A stretch of DNA of 13,241 nt, from assembly GCA_964522265.1 (NCBI GenBank), contig CAZFVS010000021.1, positions 1 through 13,241 on the forward strand. Direction: 5' to 3'. Shown piece by piece: positions 1 to 12,921 of this stretch (positions are counted from its first letter, which is position 1; each line of letters opens with the position of its first letter). Source of the DNA: an uncultured Gammaproteobacteria bacterium (GTDB lineage Bacteria; Patescibacteriota; Microgenomatia; Daviesbacterales; UBA10151). Position numbers and translations under genes: made by a program. The notes under the pieces were generated by a model. It was given only the letters and a program-made list of their open reading frames with translations. It was not told where the DNA came from and searched no databases.

Positions 1-1061
1 CCCCCTTCCCCCACATAACCATAGTCGCTGTCTGCCATCTCCCCCGGGCCATTCACAATACATCCCATCACTGCAATTGTTAAATTTTTTAAGTGGCTGG
101 TTTTTGATTGTACCTCAGTAAGCACTAAAGGCAGGTCAAATTTTGTCCTGCCGCAGGAAGGACAACCGATAAATTCTGTTTTTGTTCTGCGTACTCCTAC
201 TGCCTGCAAAATATCAAAACATACCGGAACCTCTTCCATAGGATCTTCCGATAAGGAAACCCTGATCGTATCCCCTATCCCTTCCATTAAAAGTGTTGCC
301 AATCCGGCTGTAGATTTTATCCTGGCATACTGGCCATTTCCTGCCTCTGTTACTCCCAGATGAATCGGGTAATCCATACCGTTTTGCTTCATCCTCTCTA
401 CCATTAAACGGTTCGCAGCAATCATAACAGGAACTCTGCTCGCTTTCAGTGAAATAATTAAGTTCCGGAAATTATACTGTTCAAAGATGTTTATATACTC
501 CAGCGCTGACTGGACCATCCCTTCCGGACTGTCCCCGTACAAAACCATCATCCTGTTGGAAAGGCTTCCGTGATTTACCCCAATCCTTACAGCTGTTCCG
601 TTTGCCTGACAAGATAATATCACCGGTTTTAAGGCTTTATCTATTCCGTCAAGTCTTTTGTCAATATCGTTTTGCGAATAATCCCCAATTTTTTCACTTC
701 TGCCCTGGTCTACAAAAAGCCCGGGGTTGATCCTTATTTTGTCTGCATATTTTGCAGCTTCCTCAGCAATTTTACTTCCCTGGTGATGGACATCAGCCGC
801 CAACGGAACAAACACCTGGAGATCTTTAAGTTGTTTTTTAATTTCTCTCAGGTGATTTACATCATTCAGAGACGGCACAGTAACCCTAACAATCTCTGCA
901 CCTGCCCTATACAAGTTAATAACCTGATTTATTACACCGCCAATATTCCTGGTTTCCTCTGTCACCATTGTCTGGACAACAACCGGGTTATCCCCGCCAA
1001 CAGTCACACTGCCAATTTTAACCTCTCTTGTCTTAAACCTGGGATAGAGTAATTCTTGCAT
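1..1061 (-). CDS. ispG: 4-hydroxy-3-methylbut-2-en-1-yl diphosphate synthase IspG/GcpE (MEP isoprenoid pathway); C-terminus cut by window edge
   Basis: Absent from the ORF track because it runs off the window. Hand translation of the minus strand from the ATG at 1059-1061 gives MQELLYPRFKTREVKIGSVTVGGDNPVVVQTM...RINPGL...RIGVNHGSL...HLGVTEAG...GDTIRVSL...GCPSCGRTKFDL...IAVMGCIVNGPGEMADSDYGYVG. These are the typical IspG barrel motifs plus the Cys/Cys/Cys/Glu [4Fe-4S] ligand pattern. The frame stays open to position 1. Confidence 0.9.
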   Translation of the reverse strand, partial: MQELLYPRFKTREVKIGSVTVGGDNPVVVQTMVTEETRNIGGVINQVINLYRAGAEIVRVTVPSLNDVNHLREIKKQLKDLQVFVPLAADVHHQGSKIAEEAAKYADKIRINPGLFVDQGRSEKIGDYSQNDIDKRLDGIDKALKPVILSCQANGTAVRIGVNHGSLSNRMMVLYGDSPEGMVQSALEYINIFEQYNFRNLIISLKASRVPVMIAANRLMVERMKQNGMDYPIHLGVTEAGNGQYARIKSTAGLATLLMEGIGDTIRVSLSEDPMEEVPVCFDILQAVGVRRTKTEFIGCPSCGRTKFDLPLVLTEVQSKTSHLKNLTIAVMGCIVNGPGEMADSDYGYVGEG

Positions 1062-1071
1062 TAGTTTTGAA

Positions 1072-1080
1072 ATTATACCA
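1072..1080 (-). promoter_or_regulatory. Putative extended -10 promoter element (TGGTATAAT) upstream of ispG
   Basis: The minus strand reads TGGTATAAT, matching the TGnTATAAT consensus, 10 nt before the ispG ATG. No Shine-Dalgarno sequence lies between them. The upstream spacer contains AACTTGCTTCTT, which also occurs in the promoter at 10743-10772. Confidence 0.35.
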
Positions 1081-1115
1081 GAAGAAGCAAGTTAAAATTA
1101 GTACTATGATAAAAT

Positions 1116-1622
1116 TTACTGCTCAAAACAATACAGCCTGGATTTTCTAGCACAGGAGGAGGTATAGTTGTCTGCAGTCCACCAGGCAGAATTGCTATTC
1201 ATCATCCCTGATTTGCCTGAATACGGATCAGAGCCTGAGATATATTCAGGGCCATAAGTCCAGTTATTACATGAGGTATACTGGCTGAAGATATTTCCAA
1301 AACCATTAGTGTTAGTCCAAACTGCATTAGTTTCCATACCATCTGCAGGGGCACCTGTTTCTGTAATATTAATGGGGTTTTGGATATATCCATTAAGCAC
1401 TATATCATCCCAATTACTTCCTACAACTTTTCCATTAAGAAGTTTATAGGGAAGTTTGGCATGAGTAAGCCTGGATGAGGCTGAAATTGTACTGGATGAA
1501 AGCCAGGCTTTAAATGTACCTCCAAGCTTTGCAGCATCTGCTGCGGATTGGCATTTCTGGTCTGCTCCTGTTAATCCTCCTAAATTACCATTATAGGTAG
1601 ATTTGGTAACAAAGACTTTTTT
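1116..1622 (-). other. Endostatin-like four-Cys module, copy 1 (C-terminus of the metalloprotease)
   Basis: KKVFVTKSTYNGNLGGLTGADQKCQSAADAAKLGGTFKAWLSSS...VWTNTNGFGN...SCNNW...SCARKSRLYCFEQ followed by a stop codon. The module is mosaic at the DNA level relative to copies 2 and 5. Confidence 0.75.
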
Positions 1623-3911
1623 CTCCGTAGGACATTTATTAATTTTAAAGCTAGCGGGCGAACCGCCGTCACCTGCACCCCACAACCTCACATAATAAGT
1701 AGTATCTGGATTAAGAACTAGCGGGCCATAAGGACCATAAATGGTTCCATAGAAACCAAGCGGAGCTGTTGTTGATTTTGCAGGAGAGACGTATTTCCAA
1801 GAAATATTGTAAAAATCAGGGTTAAGTGAAAAATCAACATAATAGATATTCTCATCTGTCCAAGATACTAATACATCACTCCCAACATACCCAGGATTAA
1901 TACAGCTGACATTTACTTTTATCGTAGGGGGGTTAGGCGGTTCAATCCCATAAACCCAAACAGAAGTAAGAAAAATATCATCTGAATATAATTCAAAATT
2001 ATTGCCATGGTTTGTAATAAAAGTTGCTTGTTGGGACCCTGATGTGCCAGTTGCAAAAACTTTACCACCTTCTTTGACGGTTACATTAGTAGCATTAGCG
2101 GTAGACCAAGTAATAGTGGTTATACAGGTGGAAGCTCCTAATGCTATCGTACAAGGATTAGGAGAAGCTGAGATAGCCCCTTTTGGGGAAGGGACATAAC
2201 TGACATCAACTGTTGCCTTACCTGGAAGTGTACCTAATCTTGCTGTATGACTGGTTTGTTTTACAGAAACATTATAGAGCGTATCTTGAAACGTCAAACC
2301 GTCCGAGAGTGAGGAATCATTGATATACCCACGTGTTCCAAGGGTGGTGTCTATTAATCTTGTTTGCCACCAATTATCATCATTCCAAAGGTGAACACTT
2401 ACTCCCCCTGTAATGCCGGGTGGAAGATTTGCATCATATCCAAAACCTTGCCTATAGCTTATATAATATGACCAATAATTAGGTAGGGGTATTTTTAATA
2501 TTTGAGTTTCTGTTGAAGCTGTCTCTATATCAGAAATAGTATAAGTACCGCTTCCGGTCAATTCTTTAACGTTTTCTGGAGGTAACCAATTCTCAGCAAC
2601 TTTATGCGGGCCATTAAAATGCAGCATGTCGGGGGTCACATTCCAAAAATTTCCCATAACGTCGTAGTAATCCCCATATTCTAAATTGCTACAATTTAAA
2701 TAATCTACTGAACCAACTGAACAATCTGCTAAATTTGCATGGTGGACGCCTAAATTGTGACCCATTTCATGAGCGTAAATCCTTAAGTCAGTCAGACTAC
2801 TAAAAATCCAGGATATTGAAGGATTTCCTCCTATAGTGCCAAACCCCCCATAGGAACAATTTACAGAACTTGGAAAAACGTAAACCTTTCTTTGGTACTG
2901 GTCTAAGTTTACCCCGGCAGCTCTTGCGACTAGATCTGCTTCATCTCCCCATTGATAATAAGGACAACCAGAATTTGAAGAAGGAATTGTCAACCAACCA
3001 TACACCTCACCGCTAAAAGAAGCTTTATTATACGAGTTTTCCTTATAATATCCGGCTAAAGAATTAGTTGGATTAAACATGAGAGATTTGATTTGATCAG
3101 TAGTAACTGGTCTAGAAGTATCGTTTGAAAAATTCACAAGTAAAACTACTGTTTTTTGTTCACCAAGGGCATACGTTCCTAACCCAAGTACTTTATCATC
3201 TTTTTTTAAATTGTAATTTGGCCCGGTTTTGTCACCAGTTTCCAGTACCAAATTATTGTCAATCGAAAGACCGGTCACTACAACTTCGGTATCAGTTAGT
3301 AATTTTGGAGGATTTTTTACAAAATGGAGCTTAATGCTTTTAGGCTCAGCAGTTACTTTGAACCCTGATTGTCGAATTGTACTTGGATCTTCCAAGAAGT
3401 ACTCAAATTTGCTTTTCTTGCCCTCAAAATCGTCCATATGAACAACCCTTAACTTACCTTTTATCTGTTGATGCTGTTCAATATTTAATTTAATTTCTTC
3501 AGTAAAACTTTCTCTTTTATCGATAAGGATTGCGTGTTTTAGAAATTCTTGAGGATTATTTTCTGCTTCTTTGAGTAATAACTCTTTTCTTCTTTTCGCT
3601 TTATCAGCTAAATTTTTATTATTTACAGGCTTTTGCACCTCATCCAATTTTGCTTCCCCCAATAAATCCTTGGTTAATTTATCTATCTCCTGGCTAATTT
3701 CTTGAGCTTCTGACGGCGGTTTTGGGAAAAGGGTGGAGAAGAGCTGGTCTTTAAAATTAAAGGTATTAGTTATTAAGAAAAATCCCAACAGTCCAACTAC
3801 AGCTACTATCAACAGCAGATGTCCAACACCCGCTTCGCTTGCGAAGCGAGGCTTGTTGTTTCGCTGCAAGGCGAGCAAGCCTTTTTGGTTAATTTTTTGC
3901 CAAGAGAGCAT
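1116..3911 (-). CDS. Membrane-anchored/secreted multidomain Zn-metalloprotease (HExxHxxGxxH, gametolysin/M11-like metzincin) with Ig/FN3-like spacers and a C-terminal endostatin-like (DUF1554-like) module
   Basis: 931-aa ORF with ATG at 3909-3911. The leader MLSWQKINQKG...EAG is followed by the hydrophobic helix VGHLLLIVAVVGLLGFFLI and then FNFKDQLFSTLFPKPPSEA. The zinc motif HEMGHNLGVHH is encoded at 2739-2771. The context (VVLLVNFSN...YYKENSYNKASFSGEVYGWLTIP...) resembles bacterial M11-like proteases. The last 168 aa are paralogous to four other modules in this window. Confidence 0.9.
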   Translation of the reverse strand: MLSWQKINQKGLLALQRNNKPRFASEAGVGHLLLIVAVVGLLGFFLITNTFNFKDQLFSTLFPKPPSEAQEISQEIDKLTKDLLGEAKLDEVQKPVNNKNLADKAKRRKELLLKEAENNPQEFLKHAILIDKRESFTEEIKLNIEQHQQIKGKLRVVHMDDFEGKKSKFEYFLEDPSTIRQSGFKVTAEPKSIKLHFVKNPPKLLTDTEVVVTGLSIDNNLVLETGDKTGPNYNLKKDDKVLGLGTYALGEQKTVVLLVNFSNDTSRPVTTDQIKSLMFNPTNSLAGYYKENSYNKASFSGEVYGWLTIPSSNSGCPYYQWGDEADLVARAAGVNLDQYQRKVYVFPSSVNCSYGGFGTIGGNPSISWIFSSLTDLRIYAHEMGHNLGVHHANLADCSVGSVDYLNCSNLEYGDYYDVMGNFWNVTPDMLHFNGPHKVAENWLPPENVKELTGSGTYTISDIETASTETQILKIPLPNYWSYYISYRQGFGYDANLPPGITGGVSVHLWNDDNWWQTRLIDTTLGTRGYINDSSLSDGLTFQDTLYNVSVKQTSHTARLGTLPGKATVDVSYVPSPKGAISASPNPCTIALGASTCITTITWSTANATNVTVKEGGKVFATGTSGSQQATFITNHGNNFELYSDDIFLTSVWVYGIEPPNPPTIKVNVSCINPGYVGSDVLVSWTDENIYYVDFSLNPDFYNISWKYVSPAKSTTAPLGFYGTIYGPYGPLVLNPDTTYYVRLWGAGDGGSPASFKINKCPTEKKVFVTKSTYNGNLGGLTGADQKCQSAADAAKLGGTFKAWLSSSTISASSRLTHAKLPYKLLNGKVVGSNWDDIVLNGYIQNPINITETGAPADGMETNAVWTNTNGFGNIFSQYTSCNNWTYGPEYISGSDPYSGKSGMMNSNSAWWTADNYTSSCARKSRLYCFEQ
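3828..3878 (-). repeat. 51-nt GC-rich palindromic in-frame insert in the leader (copy A)
   Basis: Encodes LLALQRNNKPRFASEAG between the leader KG and the VGH helix start. It contains the hairpin CGCTTCG-CTTG-CGAAGCG (3831-3848) and a second imperfect hairpin. The S8 and 237-aa paralogs lack this segment. Confidence 0.7.
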
Positions 3912-3918
3912 TAATTCC

Positions 3919-3947
3919 AGTTTAGATTATTCAAATGGCTTAAGCAA
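3919..3947 (-). promoter_or_regulatory. Putative sigma70-like promoter for the metalloprotease gene (TTGCTT-N17-TAAACT)
   Basis: The minus strand reads TTGCTT (3942-3947), a 17-nt spacer, then TAAACT (3919-3924). Seven nt later comes the ATG, with no Shine-Dalgarno sequence. Confidence 0.35.
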
Positions 3948-3955
3948 CTATTTAA

Positions 3956-4357
3956 TTAATTGACGAGCCTTTTAATATCAGGGAATTTATCAAAATCTTT
4001 ATCAAAAGAATAAATTTGATTGATTTTTCTCTTATTCATTAAAGCAACATGATATGCATCTGCCAGGCTAATATTTTTCTTAATAAAGTAGTCAAAAGTA
4101 GATTTTATCAAATTTTCTTGCTCTATTTTAACATTTTCTAAGTTTAATATAGGAATTAATTTCCCTTGAATTTCATCTTTGCTAAGTTTGTGGGTATTCT
4201 GCATTACAAAAACAGTTTCAAAGATTACAATCCATGAAATATAAACTTTAATTTCCCCATTATCAATTTTTTTAAAAATCTTTTCGGACTTTAGAGCATA
4301 AATTGGGTGATCTTGCAGGATAAAACGCAAAATTACATTAGTATCAAGCAAAATCAT
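3956..4357 (-). CDS. vapC: PIN-domain ribonuclease toxin (VapC family)
   Basis: 133-aa ORF. MILLDTNVILRF carries the N-terminal PIN acidic residue. Further conserved acidic positions occur in IFETVF, SLADAYHVAL and IYSFDKDFDKF. The start codon abuts the stop of the upstream antitoxin gene. Confidence 0.85.
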   Translation of the reverse strand: MILLDTNVILRFILQDHPIYALKSEKIFKKIDNGEIKVYISWIVIFETVFVMQNTHKLSKDEIQGKLIPILNLENVKIEQENLIKSTFDYFIKKNISLADAYHVALMNKRKINQIYSFDKDFDKFPDIKRLVN

Positions 4358-4651
4358 CTATTTTAAATGGGCGCTTTGTAATATTTTCAAATCTTTTTCT
4401 GCTGCTACTTTTGCCCAAGCGTGCTTTTCTTCTTGAAGAACTTCTGAAATATTTTTAAACTTTACCCTTGATTTTAAAGAACCATACAGGTGCATTATAG
4501 AAGAGCGTTTAGCAGGTTTAATTTTAACCTCTTTTTTGGCAGTAACCAAAAACTTGACTTGGTCACCACGCTTTAGGTTTAACAGTTTCCTGATTTCAAC
4601 AGGTATGGTCACTTGCCCTTTTTGGGTAATAGTGGTTGCTGAAGTTTGCAT
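4358..4651 (-). CDS. vapB: AbrB/SpoVT (MazE-fold) antitoxin, VapB-type partner of the PIN toxin
   Basis: 97-aa ORF. TITQKGQVTIPVEIRKLLNLKRGDQVKF is a typical SpoVT-AbrB swapped-hairpin DNA-binding motif. It lies immediately upstream of vapC with no gap. Confidence 0.8.
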   Translation of the reverse strand: MQTSATTITQKGQVTIPVEIRKLLNLKRGDQVKFLVTAKKEVKIKPAKRSSIMHLYGSLKSRVKFKNISEVLQEEKHAWAKVAAEKDLKILQSAHLK

Positions 4652-4693: not shown

Positions 4694-5182
4694 TTACTGC
4701 TCAAAACAATAAAGCCTGCCATTCCCGTCACAATAAGATCTGGTAGGATAATTTGTCCACGCATTATTGATTGCATTTGTATTGCCAACCCTAGCAGTCC
4801 TAATATCCCGCACCGTCCAGTTATTACAGGACATTGAGAATTTTCCATCCAAAGAACTGATGTTACCATCTGATTTAGTATTTGTCCAAACTAATTTTAT
4901 ACCTGTTAACTGGACATTACTTTCATCTATATTGATTGCTCCGGATAAATTACCATCTATCAAATCGGTCCAGTCATTGGCAACTATTGTACCGTTTAAT
5001 AATTTATACGGGACTGCGGCATGGGCGAGTCTTGACGAAGCAGAAATCGTACTTGATGAAAGCCAGGCTTTAAATGTACCACCAAGCTTTGCAGTATCTG
5101 CTGCGGATTGGCATTTCTGGTCTGCACCGGAAAGTCCCCCTAAATTACCATTAAAGGTAGACTTGGTAACAAAAACTTTCTT
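4694..5182 (-). other. Endostatin-like four-Cys module, copy 2 (C-terminus of the S8 protease)
   Basis: KKVFVTKSTFNGNLGGLSGADQKCQSAADTAKLGGTFKAWLSSSTISASSRLAHAAVPYKLLNG...VWTNTKSDGN...SCNNW...SYCDGNGRLYCFEQ followed by a stop codon. Confidence 0.75.
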
Positions 5183-7216
5183 GGAGGTTGGGGATGGAAC
5201 AGGAGTTGGTGTGGGTGTAGGAGTTGGTGTTGGTGTTGGTGTTGAAGTAATTACTGAGGATAAAGTTACGTTATCAATATACCATCCTTCGTAATTATTA
5301 AACAGGTTATCAACAGTATCAAAGAAGAAACGTATCTGTATTGAACTTCCGGCATATGCAATAAGATTTATCTTATGAAGAACCCATTGCTCTGAGATAC
5401 CTGATACTTGGTAAATTTTTTGCCATGGACCACCATTTACTGAAATCTCAACCGTCTTTTTGTCCCATGTAGTACCTGTGGTTTCTGTTTGATACCAACT
5501 ATAAAATGACAGACTGGGGTTCGTTGATAGCGTCACAGACGGAGATGTAAGATATCCGGAATTTTTTGTACCGTTGTCATAATTACCTGTTAACTCTTGG
5601 CCATACCAAAAACTTCTCCCCCCAGAAGAGGGCGATGAAGGGGTTGGTGTAGGGGTTCCACCGCCTTCACGGATATCTAATGCAACCTGTTTATCACTAC
5701 TAAGATCTTTTCTTTTTGTACTATGCCAAAAACCGGTTGTGGCAAATCCCTGGTCCGAATCATCAAATGTATATGTAATACCCGGTTGAGGTGGTATTGG
5801 AGTAGGCGATGGACGGGGTGAATCAGTTATAGCAGCTGCAACATTTAACCTTCCCCCTGTAACTGTTTTACCATTAAGCGAACTCGTATCTGTGGTTGTT
5901 CCTAAAATAGCATTTTTAATCTCTAAGGCTGTTTTGCCGGGATGAGCTGCTGCGTATAAAGCAGCTGCACCTGACACATGGGGGGTAGCCATTGATGTAC
6001 CGCTATAAGCTCCATATTTGCTATCCGGAAGAGTAGAATAAACACCAACTCCCGGCGCACCTAAATCTACAGTCAAGGATCCCCAGTTGGAAAAAGAAGC
6101 TAGACTCCCGGTGGTGTTAATAGCTGCAACAGTTATAACATTGTCGTTTGGATAACTGGCAGGATAAAAAGAGTTGCTATCATTATTGTTGCCATAATTA
6201 TTGCCGGCTGCTGCAACAAATAAAATGTTTGCCTGTTTTGCCCGTTCTATAGCATCATAGAGCGCCTGGGAATAACCTCCTCCACCCCAAGAGTTTGAAC
6301 TGGCAACTATATTTAAACCATGCCTAACCTTCAGGTCTGTTAAATAGTCTAAGGCTTTAACAGCATCAGAAATGTAACCCCCATACGGACCTAAAAATTT
6401 AGTGTTAATAATTGTTGCTTTCCAATTGACTCCTGCCACACCAATACCGTTCCCTCCAATTCCTGCAATTGTTCCTGTCACATGAGTTCCATGATCATCC
6501 CCATCAGCTGCATCATAAATTGAATTGTCTTTGTTCCAAAAATCCCAACCATGAATATCATCAATATATCCATTCCCATCATTATCTATCCCGTCTTGAG
6601 GATCAAAAGGGTTAGTCCAGATATTGGCTGCCAAATCAGGATGGGTAAATTGGATCCCTTCGTCTATCACACCTATATAAACCGTATTGTTTCCAATATA
6701 ACCTCCAGCCCAGGCTTTAGAAGCTTGAGAACCATATTGGGATACAGGTGATGTTGAATCACTCCCCATTCCCCACAGTGAACCGTTTAAATAATACGGA
6801 TCATTCGAGGTTTCCTGATGAGTATTTAAAAAATCCGGCTCGGCAAATTCAACTGATGGATCCTGATTTAACTGTGCAATAACTTCACGGACTGTTTTAC
6901 CGGATTTTATATTACGGAGTTCAAGATCTCCTTTATCTTTATCCGCTTTTTTGAGTGTTTCTTGTTTGGAAATATTTACATTAGACTCAGTTCTTTTTTT
7001 TACACTTTCATCGGTCCCCTTTTTAAATTGGACAATAACCCTATCTTTAGCATATTCAGGTTCAGCAGATTTTTGCTCTGCTTCTGACGGCGGTTTTGGG
7101 AAAAGGGTGGAAAAAAGTTGGTCTTTAAAATTGAAGGTATTGGAAACCAGCAAAAAAGCAATCAAACCCAAAACTGCAAATATCAACAGTAGATGACCAA
7201 CGCCTCTGGTATTCAT
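4694..7216 (-). CDS. Membrane-anchored/secreted subtilisin-family (S8) serine protease with I9-like propeptide, jelly-roll (MAM/LamG-like, tentative) domain, TP linker and C-terminal endostatin-like module
   Basis: 840-aa ORF. The catalytic triad contexts are GVIDEGIQFTHPDL (Asp), HGTHVTGTIAG (His) and GTSMATPHVSGAAAL (Ser, 5969-6001). The N-terminus reads MNTRG then VGHLLLIFAVLGLIAFLLV then FNFKDQLFSTLFPKPPSEA. GWYIDNVTLS ends a beta-rich domain. The start overlaps the upstream gene's stop in an ATGA arrangement (7213-7216). Confidence 0.92.
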   Translation of the reverse strand: MNTRGVGHLLLIFAVLGLIAFLLVSNTFNFKDQLFSTLFPKPPSEAEQKSAEPEYAKDRVIVQFKKGTDESVKKRTESNVNISKQETLKKADKDKGDLELRNIKSGKTVREVIAQLNQDPSVEFAEPDFLNTHQETSNDPYYLNGSLWGMGSDSTSPVSQYGSQASKAWAGGYIGNNTVYIGVIDEGIQFTHPDLAANIWTNPFDPQDGIDNDGNGYIDDIHGWDFWNKDNSIYDAADGDDHGTHVTGTIAGIGGNGIGVAGVNWKATIINTKFLGPYGGYISDAVKALDYLTDLKVRHGLNIVASSNSWGGGGYSQALYDAIERAKQANILFVAAAGNNYGNNNDSNSFYPASYPNDNVITVAAINTTGSLASFSNWGSLTVDLGAPGVGVYSTLPDSKYGAYSGTSMATPHVSGAAALYAAAHPGKTALEIKNAILGTTTDTSSLNGKTVTGGRLNVAAAITDSPRPSPTPIPPQPGITYTFDDSDQGFATTGFWHSTKRKDLSSDKQVALDIREGGGTPTPTPSSPSSGGRSFWYGQELTGNYDNGTKNSGYLTSPSVTLSTNPSLSFYSWYQTETTGTTWDKKTVEISVNGGPWQKIYQVSGISEQWVLHKINLIAYAGSSIQIRFFFDTVDNLFNNYEGWYIDNVTLSSVITSTPTPTPTPTPTPTPVPSPTSKKVFVTKSTFNGNLGGLSGADQKCQSAADTAKLGGTFKAWLSSSTISASSRLAHAAVPYKLLNGTIVANDWTDLIDGNLSGAINIDESNVQLTGIKLVWTNTKSDGNISSLDGKFSMSCNNWTVRDIRTARVGNTNAINNAWTNYPTRSYCDGNGRLYCFEQ
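5183..5248 (-). repeat. Thr-Pro low-complexity linker (imperfect ACN-CCN tandem codon repeat)
   Basis: Encodes TSTPTPTPTPTPTPTPVPSPTS. The plus strand shows reiterated ggtgtt/ggagtt units. Confidence 0.8.
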
Positions 7217-8160
7217 TGGGGATCAGCCGGGTCTGTTTTATTACCACACTGGATCCTGCCAGACAACAGCTGACTTGTTGGCACTACTTCTTCGGATAAT
7301 CCCGGCGCGCTCCAGGAAAGTTTAAGATAAGGTATACTATTTTTAACAACCTGATATTTAATTTGAATATCATATACCTCATCTGCCTCTAAGTTGATTG
7401 TTTTCAGTGGCACTACTTTAGTCTTTTGAGATTTATCAGTCCAGGAGTCTATTATTAAATCTTTATTAACCCAAACTCTCACTCCATCTTTAGTCTCAGC
7501 AGAAAATGTATGTTCTCCGAAAACTTTGGCCTTAACAGACCCATTCCAGGTTACACCGTAACGCACAGAAACAATATCTTTTGGCAAAGATATCGCACCT
7601 GATAAATTCTCATCTATTTTCCCACCTCTTCCGGAGGTTAAAGTACCACGATTATCATCTAATTGACCGCCGTTATAGTATTGTCCATATAAACCCTGCA
7701 GCTGCGGAATCGGATCGCCCACTACTTCAACACTACACTGTGCTTTAGCACTCTTACCGGGACCTAAGGCAATTATTAGACGGGCGGTTTGTTTACCCAA
7801 TTTACAATAAGCCACTGTTTTAGTCTTTGCCCTACTGGGAGTACCTTTACTAACAGCACCATATGCTTGCCAAACATAATCTATCCCCTTTAAACTTGGG
7901 TCATCTAAATCTCCGCTAAATGTTACATCTTCGTTGGGAGCAACAGTTTGTTTATCAGCACTGCAGTGGGCCGAAATTATAGAAGACGTTACTCCGGATG
8001 GCAATTCATAACCTCTCTTATTCCGTAGCTCCAAAGCCTTAGGCAAAAAACCTGTTTGTTGGCCAACCAAATAAACACCCACTGCCACACCACCTAGTAA
8101 GATACCTAAAATAATAACTTGGGAAAACCCTTTTTGGTTGATATTTTTAAAAGAGGGCAT
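7213..8160 (-). CDS. Membrane-anchored PKD/Ig-like plus PA14 domain protein (adhesin/glycan-binding type)
   Basis: The ORF track gives 327 aa from an upstream TTG at 8196. I prefer the ATG at 8158-8160 (MPSFKNINQKG, 315 aa) because the same ATG-led leader begins the gene at 9971 and a promoter-like motif overlaps the TTG extension. GLYGQYYNG...DGVRVWVNKDLIIDSW...YDIQIKYQ is a PA14 signature. The hydrophobic helix FSQVIILGILLGGVAVGVYLVG follows KG. This protein has no endostatin-like module. Confidence 0.85.
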   Translation of the reverse strand: MPSFKNINQKGFSQVIILGILLGGVAVGVYLVGQQTGFLPKALELRNKRGYELPSGVTSSIISAHCSADKQTVAPNEDVTFSGDLDDPSLKGIDYVWQAYGAVSKGTPSRAKTKTVAYCKLGKQTARLIIALGPGKSAKAQCSVEVVGDPIPQLQGLYGQYYNGGQLDDNRGTLTSGRGGKIDENLSGAISLPKDIVSVRYGVTWNGSVKAKVFGEHTFSAETKDGVRVWVNKDLIIDSWTDKSQKTKVVPLKTINLEADEVYDIQIKYQVVKNSIPYLKLSWSAPGLSEEVVPTSQLLSGRIQCGNKTDPADPQ

Positions 8161-8234
8161 CAGTTCAAGTATTGAATAGATTGACTGGTTTGTCAATTAA
8201 CAGGACTAAACGGTTACTGCTCAAAACAATACAG
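8129..8234. repeat. Gene-junction repeat, copy 1 (~105 bp, near-identical to 9940-10044)
   Basis: By hand alignment the two copies differ by one 1-nt indel and two substitutions. The repeat spans the last codons and stop (LYCFEQ) of the upstream gene, the whole intergenic spacer with its promoter-like motif, and the first 11 codons (MPSFKNINQKG) of the downstream gene. Confidence 0.9.
8168..8196 (-). promoter_or_regulatory. Putative promoter TTGACA-N17-AATACT for the PA14 gene
   Basis: The minus strand has a consensus -35 TTGACA (8191-8196), a 17-nt spacer and -10 AATACT (8168-8173). Seven nt later comes the ATG, with no Shine-Dalgarno sequence. The same element recurs at 9979-10007. Confidence 0.4.
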
Positions 8235-8702
8235 GGCAGCCTGCAGGTTGCAATTGTTAATATCCAACCAGGTCCACCTGCCGTCCCAAAAGGAGGAGTG
8301 CCCTGTCCTCCCCCTTTCAAAACCTGAAGATGAACTAGATTGCCAATTATTACAGTGCAGTGGCCCATCCTGGTCTCCGGTTCTGACTCCATTAGGCAAA
8401 GTATTAGTCCAAACATAATTAGATTTATAGGTATTATATTCTGTAATGTTAATTGGATTAATATAACTATCAAACAGATCATTTCTATCTGCTGCAACTG
8501 TAACCCCATTTAATAATTTATATTTCCCCTCAAAAAATCTAAACCTAAGATTTGGGGAGCTGTCAACTGTACTGTCGCTTATCCAGGCTTTCCATTTTCC
8601 ACCTAAGCTTGCTGCATCAGCGCTGCTTTGACATTTATAATCTGCACCTAATATTCCGCCTAAATTCCCTGAATAATTATTACTGGTAACAAATACCTTT
8701 TT
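8214..8702 (-). other. Endostatin-like four-Cys module, copy 3 (C-terminal module of the bivalent protein; most divergent)
   Basis: KKVFVTSNNYSGNLGGILGADYKCQSSADAASLGGKWKAWISDS...VWTNTLPNG...HCNNW...NCNLQAALYCFEQ followed by a stop codon. Confidence 0.7.
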
Positions 8703-9971
8703 GGGCGGGATTTCGCCCGCTATTTTTATTTTGTAGGTAATTTTTGGTCCGAATGCCCAAACCCCATCTGGTTTGGTATATCTTAAGGTTACTTCCCCTG
8801 TGTATAACTGCTCTTTATTCCCTACCCTTTGAAAATTATTGTTATCAAACACCATACGTAAAGAAACTTTTGCTGATTGTCCGGTTTTTAATTCCCCTAC
8901 TTGCGGGATCAAGCCGTATAACACATACCCGTAATCTGGAACTTCGGTGGTTAGATCCCATTTTGTGTCATAAGGAGTGTAAATTGTAATACCTTCCGCA
9001 TCAACCATTCCGTTATTTCCGTCAGGCCGATTGATGGTCGCCTCAACCGAAGTTTTATTAACAGTTACCGTTATCGGCAAAGGGCTGGGAGACGGACTAG
9101 GACTCGGGCTGGGTAAGGGGGAGGGACTTGGGCTTGGTGAAAGAGAAGGGCTTGGTGATGGGAAAGGTGATAAACTGGGTGGAAGAGAAGGGCTGGGTGA
9201 AGGGGAGAGGCTGAAATCAGGTTGTTCTATACAATAGAGTCTTGCCTGTCCTGTACACCACATGGAATTATTACTCTCGGTCCACCAACTAGCTGAATTA
9301 GGAATACTCGTATAATATGTGTTTCCGTGTACTAATCCCCCTCTGCCTTGTTGGTCAGTTCTGGTCCAATCCTGACAACTGCCTTGAGTCTGGGATATAT
9401 TTCCATTAGGTAATGTGTTCGTCCAAGCTATATGATTTTTAGTCAGATCAATTTTTATCCCTTTTTCGTTAATGTTTATGGGGTTTTGAATGGTACCATC
9501 TGTTAAATCAGCCCAATTATTTGCAACAATTGTATTATTTAATAGTTTATATTGCACAGTACTCTTAAAAAGCCTTGAAGAAGCAGGTACTGAGGATGAA
9601 GATATCCAAGTTTTAAAAACCCCTCCTAAGTTTACACTATCTGCAGCTTGCTGGCATTTCTGGTCTGCTCCAGCAAGCCCTCCTAAGTTACCATTATATT
9701 GAGTATTAGTTACAAACATTCTATAAAATGTTTTGGGTGTGGGTGTAGAGATTGGATCAGAGGCTGCTCTGGATTGAGGTTTTGGGAAAAGGGTGGAGAA
9801 AAATTGGTCTTTAAAATTAAAGGTATTTGAAACCAGCAAAAAAGCAATCAAACCCAAAACTGCAAATATCAGCAACAGATGCCCAACACCCGCTTCGCTT
9901 GCGAAGCGAGGCTTGTTGCTTCGCCGCAAGGCGAGCGAGCCTTTTTGGTTGATATTTTTAAAAGAGGGCAT
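8214..9971 (-). CDS. Membrane-anchored protein with two endostatin-like modules separated by a Ser-Pro linker and an Ig-like beta domain (bivalent lectin-like protein)
   Basis: The ORF track gives 597 aa from the TTG at 10007. I prefer the ATG at 9969-9971 (585 aa). The order is leader MPSFKNINQKG, the 17-aa palindrome-encoded insert, VGHLLLIFAVLGLIAFLLV, FNFKDQFFSTLFPKPQSRA, module A (ends ARLYCIEQ), the SP linker, a beta-rich domain, then module B (ends ALYCFEQ and stop). Confidence 0.88.
   Translation of the reverse strand: MPSFKNINQKGSLALRRSNKPRFASEAGVGHLLLIFAVLGLIAFLLVSNTFNFKDQFFSTLFPKPQSRAASDPISTPTPKTFYRMFVTNTQYNGNLGGLAGADQKCQQAADSVNLGGVFKTWISSSSVPASSRLFKSTVQYKLLNNTIVANNWADLTDGTIQNPININEKGIKIDLTKNHIAWTNTLPNGNISQTQGSCQDWTRTDQQGRGGLVHGNTYYTSIPNSASWWTESNNSMWCTGQARLYCIEQPDFSLSPSPSPSLPPSLSPFPSPSPSLSPSPSPSPLPSPSPSPSPSPLPITVTVNKTSVEATINRPDGNNGMVDAEGITIYTPYDTKWDLTTEVPDYGYVLYGLIPQVGELKTGQSAKVSLRMVFDNNNFQRVGNKEQLYTGEVTLRYTKPDGVWAFGPKITYKIKIAGEIPPKKVFVTSNNYSGNLGGILGADYKCQSSADAASLGGKWKAWISDSTVDSSPNLRFRFFEGKYKLLNGVTVAADRNDLFDSYINPINITEYNTYKSNYVWTNTLPNGVRTGDQDGPLHCNNWQSSSSSGFERGRTGHSSFWDGRWTWLDINNCNLQAALYCFEQ
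9075..9221 (-). repeat. Ser-Pro low-complexity linker (49 aa; imperfect TCN-CCN tandem repeat)
   Basis: Encodes PDFSLSPSPSPSLPPSLSPFPSPSPSLSPSPSPSPLPSPSPSPSPSPLP. The stretch is locally GC-rich with ggg/ctt/ggt reiteration. Confidence 0.8.
9222..9731 (-). other. Endostatin-like four-Cys module, copy 4 (internal, N-proximal module of the bivalent protein)
   Basis: FYRMFVTNTQYNGNLGGLAGADQKCQQAADSVNLGGVFKTWISSSSVPASSRLFKSTVQYKLLNN...AWTNTLPNGN...SCQDW...WCTGQARLYCIEQ, followed directly by the SP linker rather than a stop. Boundaries are approximate. Confidence 0.7.
9888..9938 (-). repeat. 51-nt GC-rich palindromic in-frame insert in the leader (copy B)
   Basis: Encodes SLALRRSNKPRFASEAG. By my count 33 of 51 nt are G/C, in an otherwise AT-rich window. 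It contains the hairpin CGCTTCG-CTTG-CGAAGCG (9891-9908) and a second stem CGCC-GCAA-GGCG. It is homologous to 3828-3878. Confidence 0.7.
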
Positions 9972-10044
9972 CAGTTCAAGTATTGAATAGATTGACTGGT
10001 TTGTCAATTAACAGGACTAACGGTTACTGTTCAAAACAATATAG
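9940..10044. repeat. Gene-junction repeat, copy 2 (near-identical to 8129-8234)
   Basis: See copy 1. This copy covers the stop of the 237-aa gene, the spacer, and the first 11 codons of the bivalent-module gene. Confidence 0.9.
9979..10007 (-). promoter_or_regulatory. Putative promoter TTGACA-N17-AATACT for the bivalent-module gene
   Basis: Identical to the element at 8168-8196. The ATG lies 7 nt downstream of the -10, with no Shine-Dalgarno sequence. Confidence 0.4.
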
Positions 10045-10527
10045 CCTGGATTTTCTGGCACAGGAGGAAGTATAATTGTCTGCAGTCCACCAGGCAGAGT
10101 TGCTATTCATCATTCCTGATTTGCCTGCATATGGGTCAGAGCCTGAGATATATTCAGGGCCATAGGTCCAGTTATTACATGAGGTATACTGGCTGAAGAT
10201 GGTACCAAAACCATTAGTGTTAGTCCAAACTGCTAGAGTCTCCGCACCGTTTGCAGGGGCACCGGTTTCTGTAATATTAATGGGGTTTCGGATGTATCCT
10301 TTTGTCAGACCAGCCCAGTTATTGGCAATGGTTGTACCATTTAGTAATTTATAGGGAACAGTGGCATGGGTTAGTCTGGATGAGGCAGAAATTGTACTTG
10401 ATGAAAGCCAAGCTTTAAATGTACCTACTAGGTTTGCATTACTTGATGCAGCCATGCATTTTTGGTCTGCTCCGGAAAATCCCCCTAAGTTTCCACTAAA
10501 AATAGCTTTGGTGACAAAGACTCTCTT
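10024..10527 (-). other. Endostatin-like four-Cys module, copy 5
   Basis: The 3' ~276 nt are about 91% identical to 1116-1391 (about 25 mismatches by hand count). Confidence 0.75.
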
Positions 10528-10737
10528 AGAAGTAGCTTGTGGTGTGGGTGTAGGAGTTGGAGTAATAGGACCAGAGATTGGATCAGAGGCTGCTCTAGAT
10601 TGAGGTTTTTGGAAAAGTTGACCAAATAACCTGTTCTTAAAATCAGCTGATGAGGCTACAACTAAAAAGGCCACTATCCCTAGTACTGCTATTAAAAAAA
10701 AGATATGGGTAATACCTTTTTCATTAACAAACTTCAT
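10024..10737 (-). CDS. Minimal family member: leader plus hydrophobic helix plus TP linker plus a single endostatin-like module
   Basis: 237-aa ORF. It reads MKFVNEKG, then ITHIFFLIAVLGIVAFLVV, then ADFKNRLFGQLFQKPQSRAASDP, then TPTPTPTP, then KRVFVTKAIFSGNLGGFSGADQKC...CARKSRLYCFEQ. Confidence 0.9.
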   Translation of the reverse strand: MKFVNEKGITHIFFLIAVLGIVAFLVVASSADFKNRLFGQLFQKPQSRAASDPISGPITPTPTPTPQATSKRVFVTKAIFSGNLGGFSGADQKCMAASSNANLVGTFKAWLSSSTISASSRLTHATVPYKLLNGTTIANNWAGLTKGYIRNPINITETGAPANGAETLAVWTNTNGFGTIFSQYTSCNNWTYGPEYISGSDPYAGKSGMMNSNSAWWTADNYTSSCARKSRLYCFEQ

Positions 10738-10796: not shown

Positions 10797-12470
<1,674 letters not shown>

Positions 12471-12650
12471 CTATCCTCCACATCTCTGTCGCGCATAATA
12501 TGCCAACTTTAGTTCCCATTCCCTTTCTTGTCTTTTCTGTATCTCATTTAATTCCTTTCTTAATCTTTTTATTTCTTCTCTTAACTCTCTGTTTTCCGAT
12601 TCTAATTTAGCTATAACTACATCTTCACTTGGTTCAAGTTCCTGCACCAT
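12471..12650 (-). CDS. Small (59 aa) coiled-coil protein of unknown function; below the ORF-track length cut-off
   Basis: Hand translation from the ATG at 12648-12650 gives MVQELEPSEDVVIAKLESENRELREEIKRLRKELNEIQKRQEREWELKLAYYARQRCGG, ending at TAG 12471-12473. It starts 1 nt after the stop of the upstream ORF and ends 15 nt before the groEL ATG. The charged heptad-like pattern suggests a coiled coil. Confidence 0.5.
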   Translation of the reverse strand: MVQELEPSEDVVIAKLESENRELREEIKRLRKELNEIQKRQEREWELKLAYYARQRCGG

Positions 12651-12651
12651 T

Positions 12652-12921
12652 TTAGTAAGCTACCCCCGGTTCTTCACCTACCCTTTCGTCTTTAAATATA
12701 TCCCCATCTCCATTACCGGCTTCAAGATACAATGTTCTGTCAGACAAATATATCTCGGGATGGGCAATATTAAGTATTATCTGCAAAGCATTTCTATAAG
12801 CCCACAAAACCCGGTCATCAATACTGTTTACATATTCTCCGCGCAGCATTTTGTCTCCTAACCTATTCCACTCAACACCAATCTGATCCAATAAACTTCT
12901 TGCTTGTCTTTCTGTCATCAT
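12652..12921 (-). CDS. Hypothetical small protein (89 aa)
   Basis: ORF-track entry with no recognisable motif. It is tightly packed, 2 nt after the upstream ORF's stop. A GAGGA Shine-Dalgarno-like motif lies about 9 nt upstream of the ATG, inside the end of the upstream ORF. Confidence 0.55.
   Translation of the reverse strand: MMTERQARSLLDQIGVEWNRLGDKMLRGEYVNSIDDRVLWAYRNALQIILNIAHPEIYLSDRTLYLEAGNGDGDIFKDERVGEEPGVAY

Follow-up and report, generated by a model that had tools for sequence, protein, structure and literature searches.

A bacterial endostatin-type domain at the C-termini of two proteases and two further proteins of one gene cluster

A stretch of 13,241 nucleotides of contig CAZFVS010000021.1 (assembly GCA_964522265.1), which as a whole is referred to as the window, encodes on its minus strand five copies of a bacterial module of ~165 residues whose kinship with the endostatin domain of animals is genuine, the likeness lying far beyond chance. 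The copies are found in four proteins, a subtilase of family S8, an M11-like zinc metalloprotease, a two-module protein of 585 residues and a protein of 237 residues. Within the C-type-lectin-like fold the module belongs to the endostatin-type branch; the Len motif of Leptospira and Pfam DUF1554 (PF07588) denote this same domain. The homology as such is not new, since it repeats what Pfam, NCBIfam and Leptospira papers of 2007 and 2008 say; the two protease fusions are a novel architecture for this known kind of domain. Overall we favor, with a probability of about 0.7, that the module is an extracellular, disulfide-stabilized binding or targeting module of the endostatin/Len type.

Kinship of the module with endostatin and Len

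Module m2 consists of the stop codon and the last 162 residues of an 840-residue open reading frame (ORF; 4694..7216). Its translation reads KKVFVTKSTFNGNLGGLSGADQKCQSAADTAKLGGTFKAWLSSS...AAVPYKLLNG...VWTNTKSDGN...SCNNW...SYCDGNGRLYCFEQ; these strings had been quoted in an earlier reading of the letters without database searches (the sequence-only reading), and all of them are present. The five copies are:

1116..1622, minus strand: module m1, C-terminus of the M11-like metalloprotease; Pfam Endostatin E 1.4e-5, DUF1554 E 2e-5
4694..5182, minus strand: module m2, C-terminus of the S8 protease; stop codon (4694-4696) included
8214..8702, minus strand: module m3, C-terminal copy of the two-module protein; Pfam DUF1554, best stretch 443-570
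9222..9731, minus strand: module m4, N-proximal copy of the two-module protein; Pfam Endostatin, stretch 98-223
10024..10527, minus strand: module m5, in the stand-alone 237-residue protein; Pfam DUF1554 E 3.7e-6, Endostatin E 5.2e-5

An alignment of the five copies has 46 invariant columns. The other four copies all start at the residue equivalent to the start of m2, to which they are 44-60% identical, and all five keep GAD-x-x-C, GTFKAW-LSS, VW, C-x-x-W and LYC[FI]EQ as anchors; that a set of anchors is conserved in all five copies had been stated by the sequence-only reading. Every copy ends with CFEQ or CIEQ (m4 with LYCIEQ, after which a Ser/Pro-rich linker follows) and contains exactly four Cys; a fifth Cys in a longer slice of m1 lies upstream of the module. 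The most divergent copy, m3, is also the sole acidic one (isoelectric point (pI) 6.1), the remaining four being mildly basic (pI 8.6-9.25, net charge +3 to +6).

DUF1554 and Endostatin (PF06482) were the only Pfam families that matched the module, and both did so in all four carriers, m2 scoring E 7.1e-8 (32.8 bits) with DUF1554 and E 2.9e-5 with Endostatin. The gathering cut-offs are 27.5 bits (DUF1554) and 29.4 bits (Endostatin). For DUF1554 the two-module protein (54.1 bits) and the S8 carrier (32.8 bits) lie above the cut-off, the 237-residue protein (27.3 bits) is borderline and the M11 carrier reaches 24.9 bits; for Endostatin the two-module protein (40.3 bits) lies above and the single-module carriers (23.4-25.3 bits) lie below. 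When a single 168-residue module was compared by phmmer with the sequences in the PDB, endostatins only were found, with E 2e-4 for 1bnl, 1koe and 1dy0 and E 0.07 for 1dy2, which is from collagen XV. A family profile of 37 sequences (the five window copies and 32 database homologues) retrieved from the PDB only collagen XVIII/XV endostatins, 1koe with E 9.5e-17 over chain residues 11-169, in an alignment that pairs the four Cys, GAD-x-x-C, GTF[KR]A[FW]LSS, VW, C-x-x-W and the last strand LYC[FI]E. Compared directly with human endostatin, in an alignment that agrees with those to PDB sequences, the module has invariant positions at all four Cys, at GAD, L, G, S, R, W and G and at the closing E.

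An AlphaFold2 model built on the family alignment (mean predicted local distance difference test score 93.8, predicted template-modeling score 0.90) gave in Foldseek against the PDB five endostatins as the top matches (1koe, 1dy1, 1dy0, 1bnl and 1dy2; E 1.5e-9 to 4e-8), with template-modeling (TM) scores of 0.72-0.79 and root-mean-square deviations of 2.8-3.3 Å. Second-tier matches were C-type lectin-like domains, namely snaclecs and carbohydrate-recognition domains of mannose receptors (E ≥0.03, TM ≤0.34). Neither the sequence nor the fold search of the PDB found a solved bacterial structure for the module. The kinship that the sequence-only reading had drawn by eye was returned by Pfam, the PDB sequence search, the profile and Foldseek alike, and the four Cys that it had equated with those of endostatin stand in matching columns in all five copies and the PDB endostatins.

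That the likeness is due to chance or convergence has a practically negligible probability. Pairwise identity with endostatin is just ~20-26%, and the single-module proteins stay under the Pfam Endostatin gathering threshold, but the full-length profile returned endostatins alone at E 9.5e-17, TM scores of 0.76-0.79 were reached on endostatin structures and the same four Cys columns recur together with the terminal strand motif LYC[FI]E[QN]. The profile search of the PDB and Foldseek effectively refute a chance resemblance.

With the endostatins of collagens XVIII and XV (1koe, 1bnl, 1dy0/1dy1 and 1dy2) the module has in common the fold, the four Cys columns and the anchors GAD-x-x-C, GTF[KR]A[FW]LSS, VW, C-x-x-W and C-[IF]-E-[NQ], as well as its place at the C-terminus of a larger protein that is secreted or, in the window, presumably so. 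The loop that joins the PIN.xE region to VW is shorter in the module. Endostatin is part of the NC1 region of a multiplexin collagen with trimerization domain and hinge, whereas the window carriers have neither of these nor collagen repeats. The Zn site of endostatin (H1, H3, H11 and D76) is absent from the window modules, H1 and H3 having no counterpart, H11 being replaced by K and D76 by G; this N-terminal site we take to be a trait of collagen XVIII endostatin rather than of the fold. Aligned with R24, R27 and R139, presumably the heparin-binding arginine patch of endostatin, are G, S/T/L/A and T/Q in the five copies.

In the AlphaFold2 model the first Cys (C1) lies in the long helix and the fourth (C4) in the last strand, which we take to be their places in endostatin, too. 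Among 460 full-length domains from 182 family proteins (alignment shifts corrected) C1 and C4 are 100% conserved, and real losses are confined to C2 and C3, jointly in three domains and C3 alone in two. The Cys columns, the placement in the model and the pattern of loss are consistent with a predicted pairing C1-C4 and C2-C3, that is the 1-4/2-3 topology. Two such disulfides would hold together an extracellular domain of ~160 residues.

In 2007 Stevenson et al. named six paralogous proteins of Leptospira interrogans Len, for 'leptospiral endostatin-like', fold recognition having assigned each Len motif to endostatin (PMC2063517). The motif ends with CVEQ, the larger paralogues contain two motifs, and recombination together with duplications inside genes produced the diversity of the family (PMC2063517). 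The proteins have laminin, fibronectin and factor H as ligands; the binding of LenA and LenB to laminin is salt-sensitive and heparin competes with it (PMC2063517). A genome survey of 2008 joined Len, DUF1554 and PDB entry 1koe (PMC2387172), and Lp95 is a further DUF1554 lipoprotein of Leptospira (PMC4109591). The sequence-only reading had placed the bacterial relatives in DUF1554, in which Pfam bears it out, and had considered them to be without known function, in which it erred, the Len proteins being characterized binders.

The NCBIfam model 'endostatin-like outer membrane protein, LenA/LenB family' matches all four carriers (E 3.4e-6 to 7.5e-12), the 237-residue protein over residues 13-237 with E 1.2e-9. 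The scores of the window proteins with the Len models (NF047482/NF047483) are 26.6-45.1 bits and thus far below the equivalog cut-offs (300 bits for LenA/LenB, 400 bits for LenF), and the window modules are therefore homologous domains and not Len orthologues. The Leptospira lipoproteins (LenA-F, DUF1554) have the same domain with a predicted endostatin fold, and their CVEQ ending and the CFEQ/CIEQ endings of the window are of one form, C-[V/F/I]-E-Q. Both groups comprise proteins with one motif and proteins with two, and in both the paralogues diversify via recombination (for Len see PMC2063517). Len proteins are lipoproteins with a lipobox, whereas the window proteins have a long hydrophobic leader without one; a protease fusion is not described for Len, whereas two of the window carriers are proteases (S8 and M11-like). 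The window organism is not Leptospira: in a scan of genome contigs the closest relatives, at 46-47% identity, came from a Daviesbacteria metagenome-assembled genome (MAG) and an unclassified MAG. Since these two MAGs are the closest genomic relatives, ligands from the mammalian extracellular matrix are unlikely here.

Carrier proteins, leaders and mosaic paralogues

The carriers and the elements belonging to them are:

1116..3911, minus strand: carrier 1, M11-like zinc metalloprotease, 931 residues; Pfam Peptidase_M11 E 1.9e-16
4694..7216, minus strand: carrier 2, S8 protein, 840 residues; Pfam Peptidase_S8 E 6.4e-50, Fervidolysin_NPro-like, InhA-like_MAM
5183..5245, minus strand: Thr/Pro-rich linker TPTPTPTPTPTPTPVPSPTS (translation) between the MAM-like domain and m2
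8214..9971, minus strand: carrier 3, two-module protein, 585 residues, ATG at 9971; library protein P0039 has 585 residues and two modules
10024..10737, minus strand: carrier 4, 237 residues; leader, Thr/Pro linker, m5
7078..7204, minus strand: leader-encoding DNA (GVGHLLLIFAVLGLIAFLLVSNTFNFKDQLFSTLFPKP); further copies at 3704-3830 and 9764-9890
7213..8160, minus strand: PA14 (and weak PKD) protein; Pfam PA14 E 7.5e-15, start codon reassigned

Carrier 2 is composed of a hydrophobic leader, a fervidolysin-type prodomain, a thermitase-type S8 subtilase, a domain like MAM and choice-of-anchor J (NCBIfam choice_anch_J, 24.6 bits), the Thr/Pro linker and m2. The DNA of this linker contains a tandem repeat (5201-5244). 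In a protein library search the S8 enzyme was 55-60% identical to many enzymes of ~470 residues; the 120 best S8 homologues have no C-terminal extension or one of fn3, Calx-beta or cadherin-like type, and none of the 120 has DUF1554 or Endostatin, from which it follows that the module, the MAM-like/choice-of-anchor-J-like domain and the (TP)n linker are a lineage-specific addition. Carrier 1 has a leader, a Peptidase_M11-like metalloprotease (HEMGHNLGVHH), a beta-rich middle part and m1. The architecture of carrier 4 is the commonest among close homologues (~240 residues). Thr/Pro or Ser/Pro linkers stand ahead of the modules. The PA14 protein, a member of the same cluster of secreted-type proteins, has a hydrophobic leader of its own and is without an endostatin-like module.

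The leader DNA copies are 78-88% identical in nucleotide sequence across three otherwise unlike genes (repeat family D3; for the leader 3704-3929 and 9764-9989 are also given), and the three proteins share the motif GVGHLLLI[FV]AV[LV]GL..FNFKDQLFSTLFPKP[PQ]S. A related, more divergent leader is found in the 237-residue protein, and a related one in a Patescibacteria/DPANN locus designated L001. All five cluster proteins contain a strongly hydrophobic N-terminal stretch of 19 residues (mean Kyte-Doolittle value 2.5-2.8), the leaders being hydrophobic segments of ~20 residues followed by FNFKDQLF..KP. No lipobox was found in the window leaders and no match of the leader to Pfam or NCBIfam models. 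Because of the hydrophobic leader and a fold that depends on disulfides, we infer that the cluster proteins are exported. The stretch conserved beyond the hydrophobic core exceeds the length of a standard signal-peptidase c-region.

An exact direct repeat of 81 nucleotides (8129-8209 and 9940-10020) covers the 5′ ends of the PA14 and two-module genes and the DNA upstream of them. Within it, on the minus strand, a TTGACA-17-AATACT (8196-8168 and 10007-9979) looks like a promoter, and the TTG 'starts' listed for these genes (10007 for the two-module gene) are part of the -35 hexamer; the genuine start is an ATG (MPSFKNINQKG) 8 nucleotides past the -10 hexamer, which points to mRNAs that are leaderless or nearly so. 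Ahead of the 237-residue protein gene there is a TTGACA-18-TACAAT that ends 6 nucleotides before the ATG.

Module m1 is a mosaic. In sliding-window comparisons the 5′ ~150 nucleotides of m1 are 85-96% identical to m2, and its 3′ 279 nucleotides are 91-97% identical to m5. A protein of 238 residues from another contig, of 3,305 bp (P0001), is of the reciprocal type: leader, linker and first part of the module are m5-like, and by eye the last ~110 residues match m2 exactly, which would imply that related genomes or strains have exchanged cassettes in both directions. The breakpoints lie near the conserved SSSTISASSRL. Averaged over all pairs of copies, identity is 67% in the N-terminal third and 46% in the C-terminal two-thirds of the module. 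As read from these sequences, cassette-like recombination swaps the variable C-terminal two-thirds among the paralogues.

The 279-nucleotide 3′ ends of m1 and m5 differ at 26 positions, 18 of which are third codon positions, and the genes are therefore under purifying selection. Diversity-generating retroelements (DGRs) are common in Patescibacteria and DPANN, and their variable proteins (Mtd/TvpA type) resemble the window module in the C-type lectin-like superfold and the variable C-terminal part. DGR proteins, however, vary by changes at template adenines, whereas the variation in the window comes from recombination of paralogues. The 26 differences have a mixed spectrum without an adenine-specific pattern, and no reverse transcriptase was noticed among the window ORFs and Pfam matches. 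DGR hypermutation was rejected in view of the missing adenine bias in the 279-nucleotide copies and the 18 of 26 changes at the third position.

Family-wide occurrence and proposed function

Out of 1.84 billion, a profile of the five copies matched 16,905 cluster representatives at E ≤1e-3, 12,482 of them at E ≤1e-10 and 2,753 at E ≤1e-30. Most homologues bear a precomputed PF07588. Top-scoring family proteins contain 2-12 module copies. In 126 of 182 family proteins the module stands at the very C-terminus, C[FVIL][EQ]Q typically being the last residues before the stop. Partner domains in 72 sampled proteins are of extracellular and adhesin types (fn3, Big, cadherin-like, dockerin, RTX, EGF, TIG and CBM96).

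Species-representative genomes were scanned with patterns seeded from the five window copies, which gave 24 loci; the seed patterns being narrow, the list of taxa is a biased sample. It includes Patescibacteria (Daviesbacteria, Falkowbacteria, Saccharibacteria and one unclassified member), a Woesearchaeota archaeon, many Myxococcota, Bdellovibrionales, Micavibrio and other proteobacterial MAGs. Dense clusters of 3-6 module copies were seen in a Micavibrio MAG (L011, 2400-8100), a Polyangia MAG (L009, 4960-8930) and Nannocystis punicea (L003, 3690-8850), all of them bacteria of the predatory type; several carriers are extremely rich in Cys, with up to 127 Cys in 858 residues (L008). In the library searched, no paper links endostatin with Patescibacteria, Woesearchaeota, Myxococcota, Bdellovibrionales or Micavibrio. 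As to carriage by phages, a scan of viral contigs gave no match and a fold search of BFVD none at E ≤0.001. A lipobox homologue of 241 residues (P0008, 47% identical) was found at two loci (L026, 4308-5033, and L027, 4819-5544) in a phage- or prophage-like setting of ~25 tightly packed small ORFs on the same strand together with a GH25 lysozyme, ParB_N and a sigma-70 region-4 protein.

We propose that the shared hydrophobic leader takes each protein out of the cytoplasm and that the module, set off by the Thr/Pro or Ser/Pro linker, is presented at the extreme C-terminal end. The conserved N-terminal third (beta1-alpha1-beta2 with GAD-x-x-C and GTFKAW-LSS) would serve as scaffold, the variable C-terminal two-thirds being most likely the face that binds a macromolecular surface ligand, a protein or a glycoconjugate. 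On the S8 and M11-like proteases binding would tether or target the enzyme to its substrate or a surface, while the stand-alone 237-residue protein and the two-module protein would be adhesins with the module as head. Recombination between paralogues, by swapping the variable part, would alter the binding specificity. For a binding role speak the Len proteins as characterized binders (PMC2063517), the adhesin-type partners, the C-terminal position, the Thr/Pro and Ser/Pro linkers, the hydrophobic leaders and the PA14 neighbor.

Several points weigh against this proposal. The function cannot simply be transferred from endostatin because the Zn ligands as well as R24, R27 and R139 are without equivalents, and the known Len ligands are mammalian and thus irrelevant to an environmental, probably Patescibacteria-type organism. 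The protease fusion does not recur among the 120 closest S8 homologues, and the only protease among the 72 sampled module proteins is the M11 protein of the window itself. The loci in Patescibacteria and DPANN (L001, L002, L005 and L010) have no recurrent neighborhood, the neighbors being PGK, an O-antigen-ligase-like gene and Ig-like and DUF4215 proteins, with a weakly M11-like ORF downstream at L010. The disulfide pairing is a prediction from column alignment and joint loss.

Of other functions that the module could have, anchoring of the proteins to the envelope of the producer itself (cell wall, S-layer or capsule), in the manner of SLH or choline-binding modules, is unlikely. The place at the extreme C-terminus behind flexible linkers does resemble that of cell-wall-binding modules, and an O-antigen-ligase-like gene adjoins the module gene at L001. 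The N-terminal hydrophobic segment, however, could already anchor the proteins, a variable and recombining C-terminal part would not be expected for a constant self polymer, the characterized relatives (Len) bind foreign ligands (PMC2063517) and many family proteins combine 2-12 copies with adhesin domains. Very improbable is a cleaved C-terminal pro-domain or secretion aid without a ligand, comparable to PPC domains or to the proteolytic release of endostatin. For it could be quoted that the module sits behind protease-sensitive Thr/Pro linkers on two proteases and that S8 homologues bear many alternative C-terminal extensions, but the module also stands alone behind a leader (in the 237-residue protein and in most close homologues of ~240 residues), occurs in tandem and is found on proteins that are not proteases. 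The existence of stand-alone, tandem and recombining forms makes both these explanations less consistent with the data.

The sequence-only reading had also thought of a heparin-like ligand, which found no support, as R24, R27 and R139 and the Zn ligands are not conserved in the five copies. Binding of polyanions such as heparin or heparan sulfate via a basic patch would agree with the mildly basic character of four of the five modules (pI 8.6-9.25, net +3 to +6) and with the salt-sensitive, heparin-competed binding of LenA and LenB to laminin (PMC2063517), yet G, S/T/L/A and T/Q occupy the positions of the three arginines, m3 is acidic (pI 6.1) and R57 is the sole basic residue conserved in at least 80% of the 460 domains; we consider it quite unlikely. 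Distinctly improbable is a classical Ca2+-dependent carbohydrate-recognition domain of the C-type lectins. The fold is C-type-lectin-like, snaclecs and mannose-receptor domains came up second in Foldseek, PA14, the domain of the adjoining gene, is common in glycan-binding proteins, and CBM96 and the C-terminal domain of GH85 are among the partners elsewhere. But the motifs EPN, QPD, WND and WIGL are in no copy, Lectin_C was not among the Pfam matches at E ≤0.1, and the lectin matches are weak (E ≥0.03, TM ≤0.34, against a TM of 0.79 for endostatin). Classical C-type lectin-like domains (Lectin_C) share the superfold; the Ca2+ and sugar motifs are theirs and are absent from the window modules. 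To our knowledge endostatin-type domains of this fold have no Ca2+ site. The heparin and lectin explanations are thus unsupported, the equivalents of the Zn ligands and arginines and the Ca2+/sugar motifs being missing and one module being acidic.

The endostatin fold is not a specialty of animals but forms a very large prokaryotic family of extracellular domains, of which the Leptospira members are the only ones studied. To this the window contributes two protease fusions and a compact case of recombination between paralogues that swaps the variable part of the domain. The ligand of the binding module that we favor, if identified, could reveal how ultra-small cells of the Patescibacteria type attach to or digest their partners or substrates. 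Going further, the module might serve episymbiotic and predatory prokaryotes to recognize the surface of other cells, being retuned by cassette exchange, and animal endostatin might be an offshoot of the bacterial family and not a metazoan invention; this combined view is speculative and we regard it as rather unlikely. The groups that prompt it are the Patescibacteria, the Woesearchaeota archaeon, Myxococcota, Bdellovibrionales and Micavibrio, in which the module would bring proteases and adhesins to the envelopes of host or prey.

Gene order and surroundings

ORF translations and Pfam matches describe the window as a minus-strand gene cluster in which all genes are co-oriented. In the order of the minus strand these are:

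10797-12455, minus strand: groEL, first in order
10024-10737, minus strand: gene of the 237-residue protein
8214-9971, minus strand: gene of the two-module protein
7213-8160, minus strand: gene of the PA14 protein
4694-7216, minus strand: gene of the S8 protease (840 residues)
3956-4651, minus strand: AbrB/MazE-PIN toxin-antitoxin pair, between the two protease genes
1116-3911, minus strand: gene of the M11-like metalloprotease (931 residues)
1-1090, minus strand: 5′ part of ispG, running off the start of the window

The VapBC-like toxin-antitoxin insert encodes a PIN-domain toxin of 133 residues and an AbrB/MazE-type antitoxin of 97 residues, and its DNA is AT-rich (GC content 0.32 vs. ~0.40-0.43 in the flanks). 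The N-terminal part of an IspG/GcpE-like protein (HMBPP synthase; ~360 residues) was identified by eye from the translation. In the groEL region (10797-12921) there is no groES immediately upstream but a gap of 196 nucleotides with a 21-nucleotide tandem repeat (12534-12589), beyond which follow two small ORFs of 89 and 84 residues without an NCBIfam match. Rfam and tRNA scans of the window gave no match.

The protein collection includes the 237-residue protein and GroEL, both encoded on this contig, but a search with the 840-residue S8 protein did not return the query itself; possibly the source annotation has no call for its gene or a different one. Three long ORFs that run antisense to or out of frame with the module genes, 4767-5294 and 10361-10603 on the plus strand and 8165-8509 on the minus strand, are artefacts of the composition of the coding strand and not genes; one of them has a GVGVGVGV run opposite the Thr/Pro linker.

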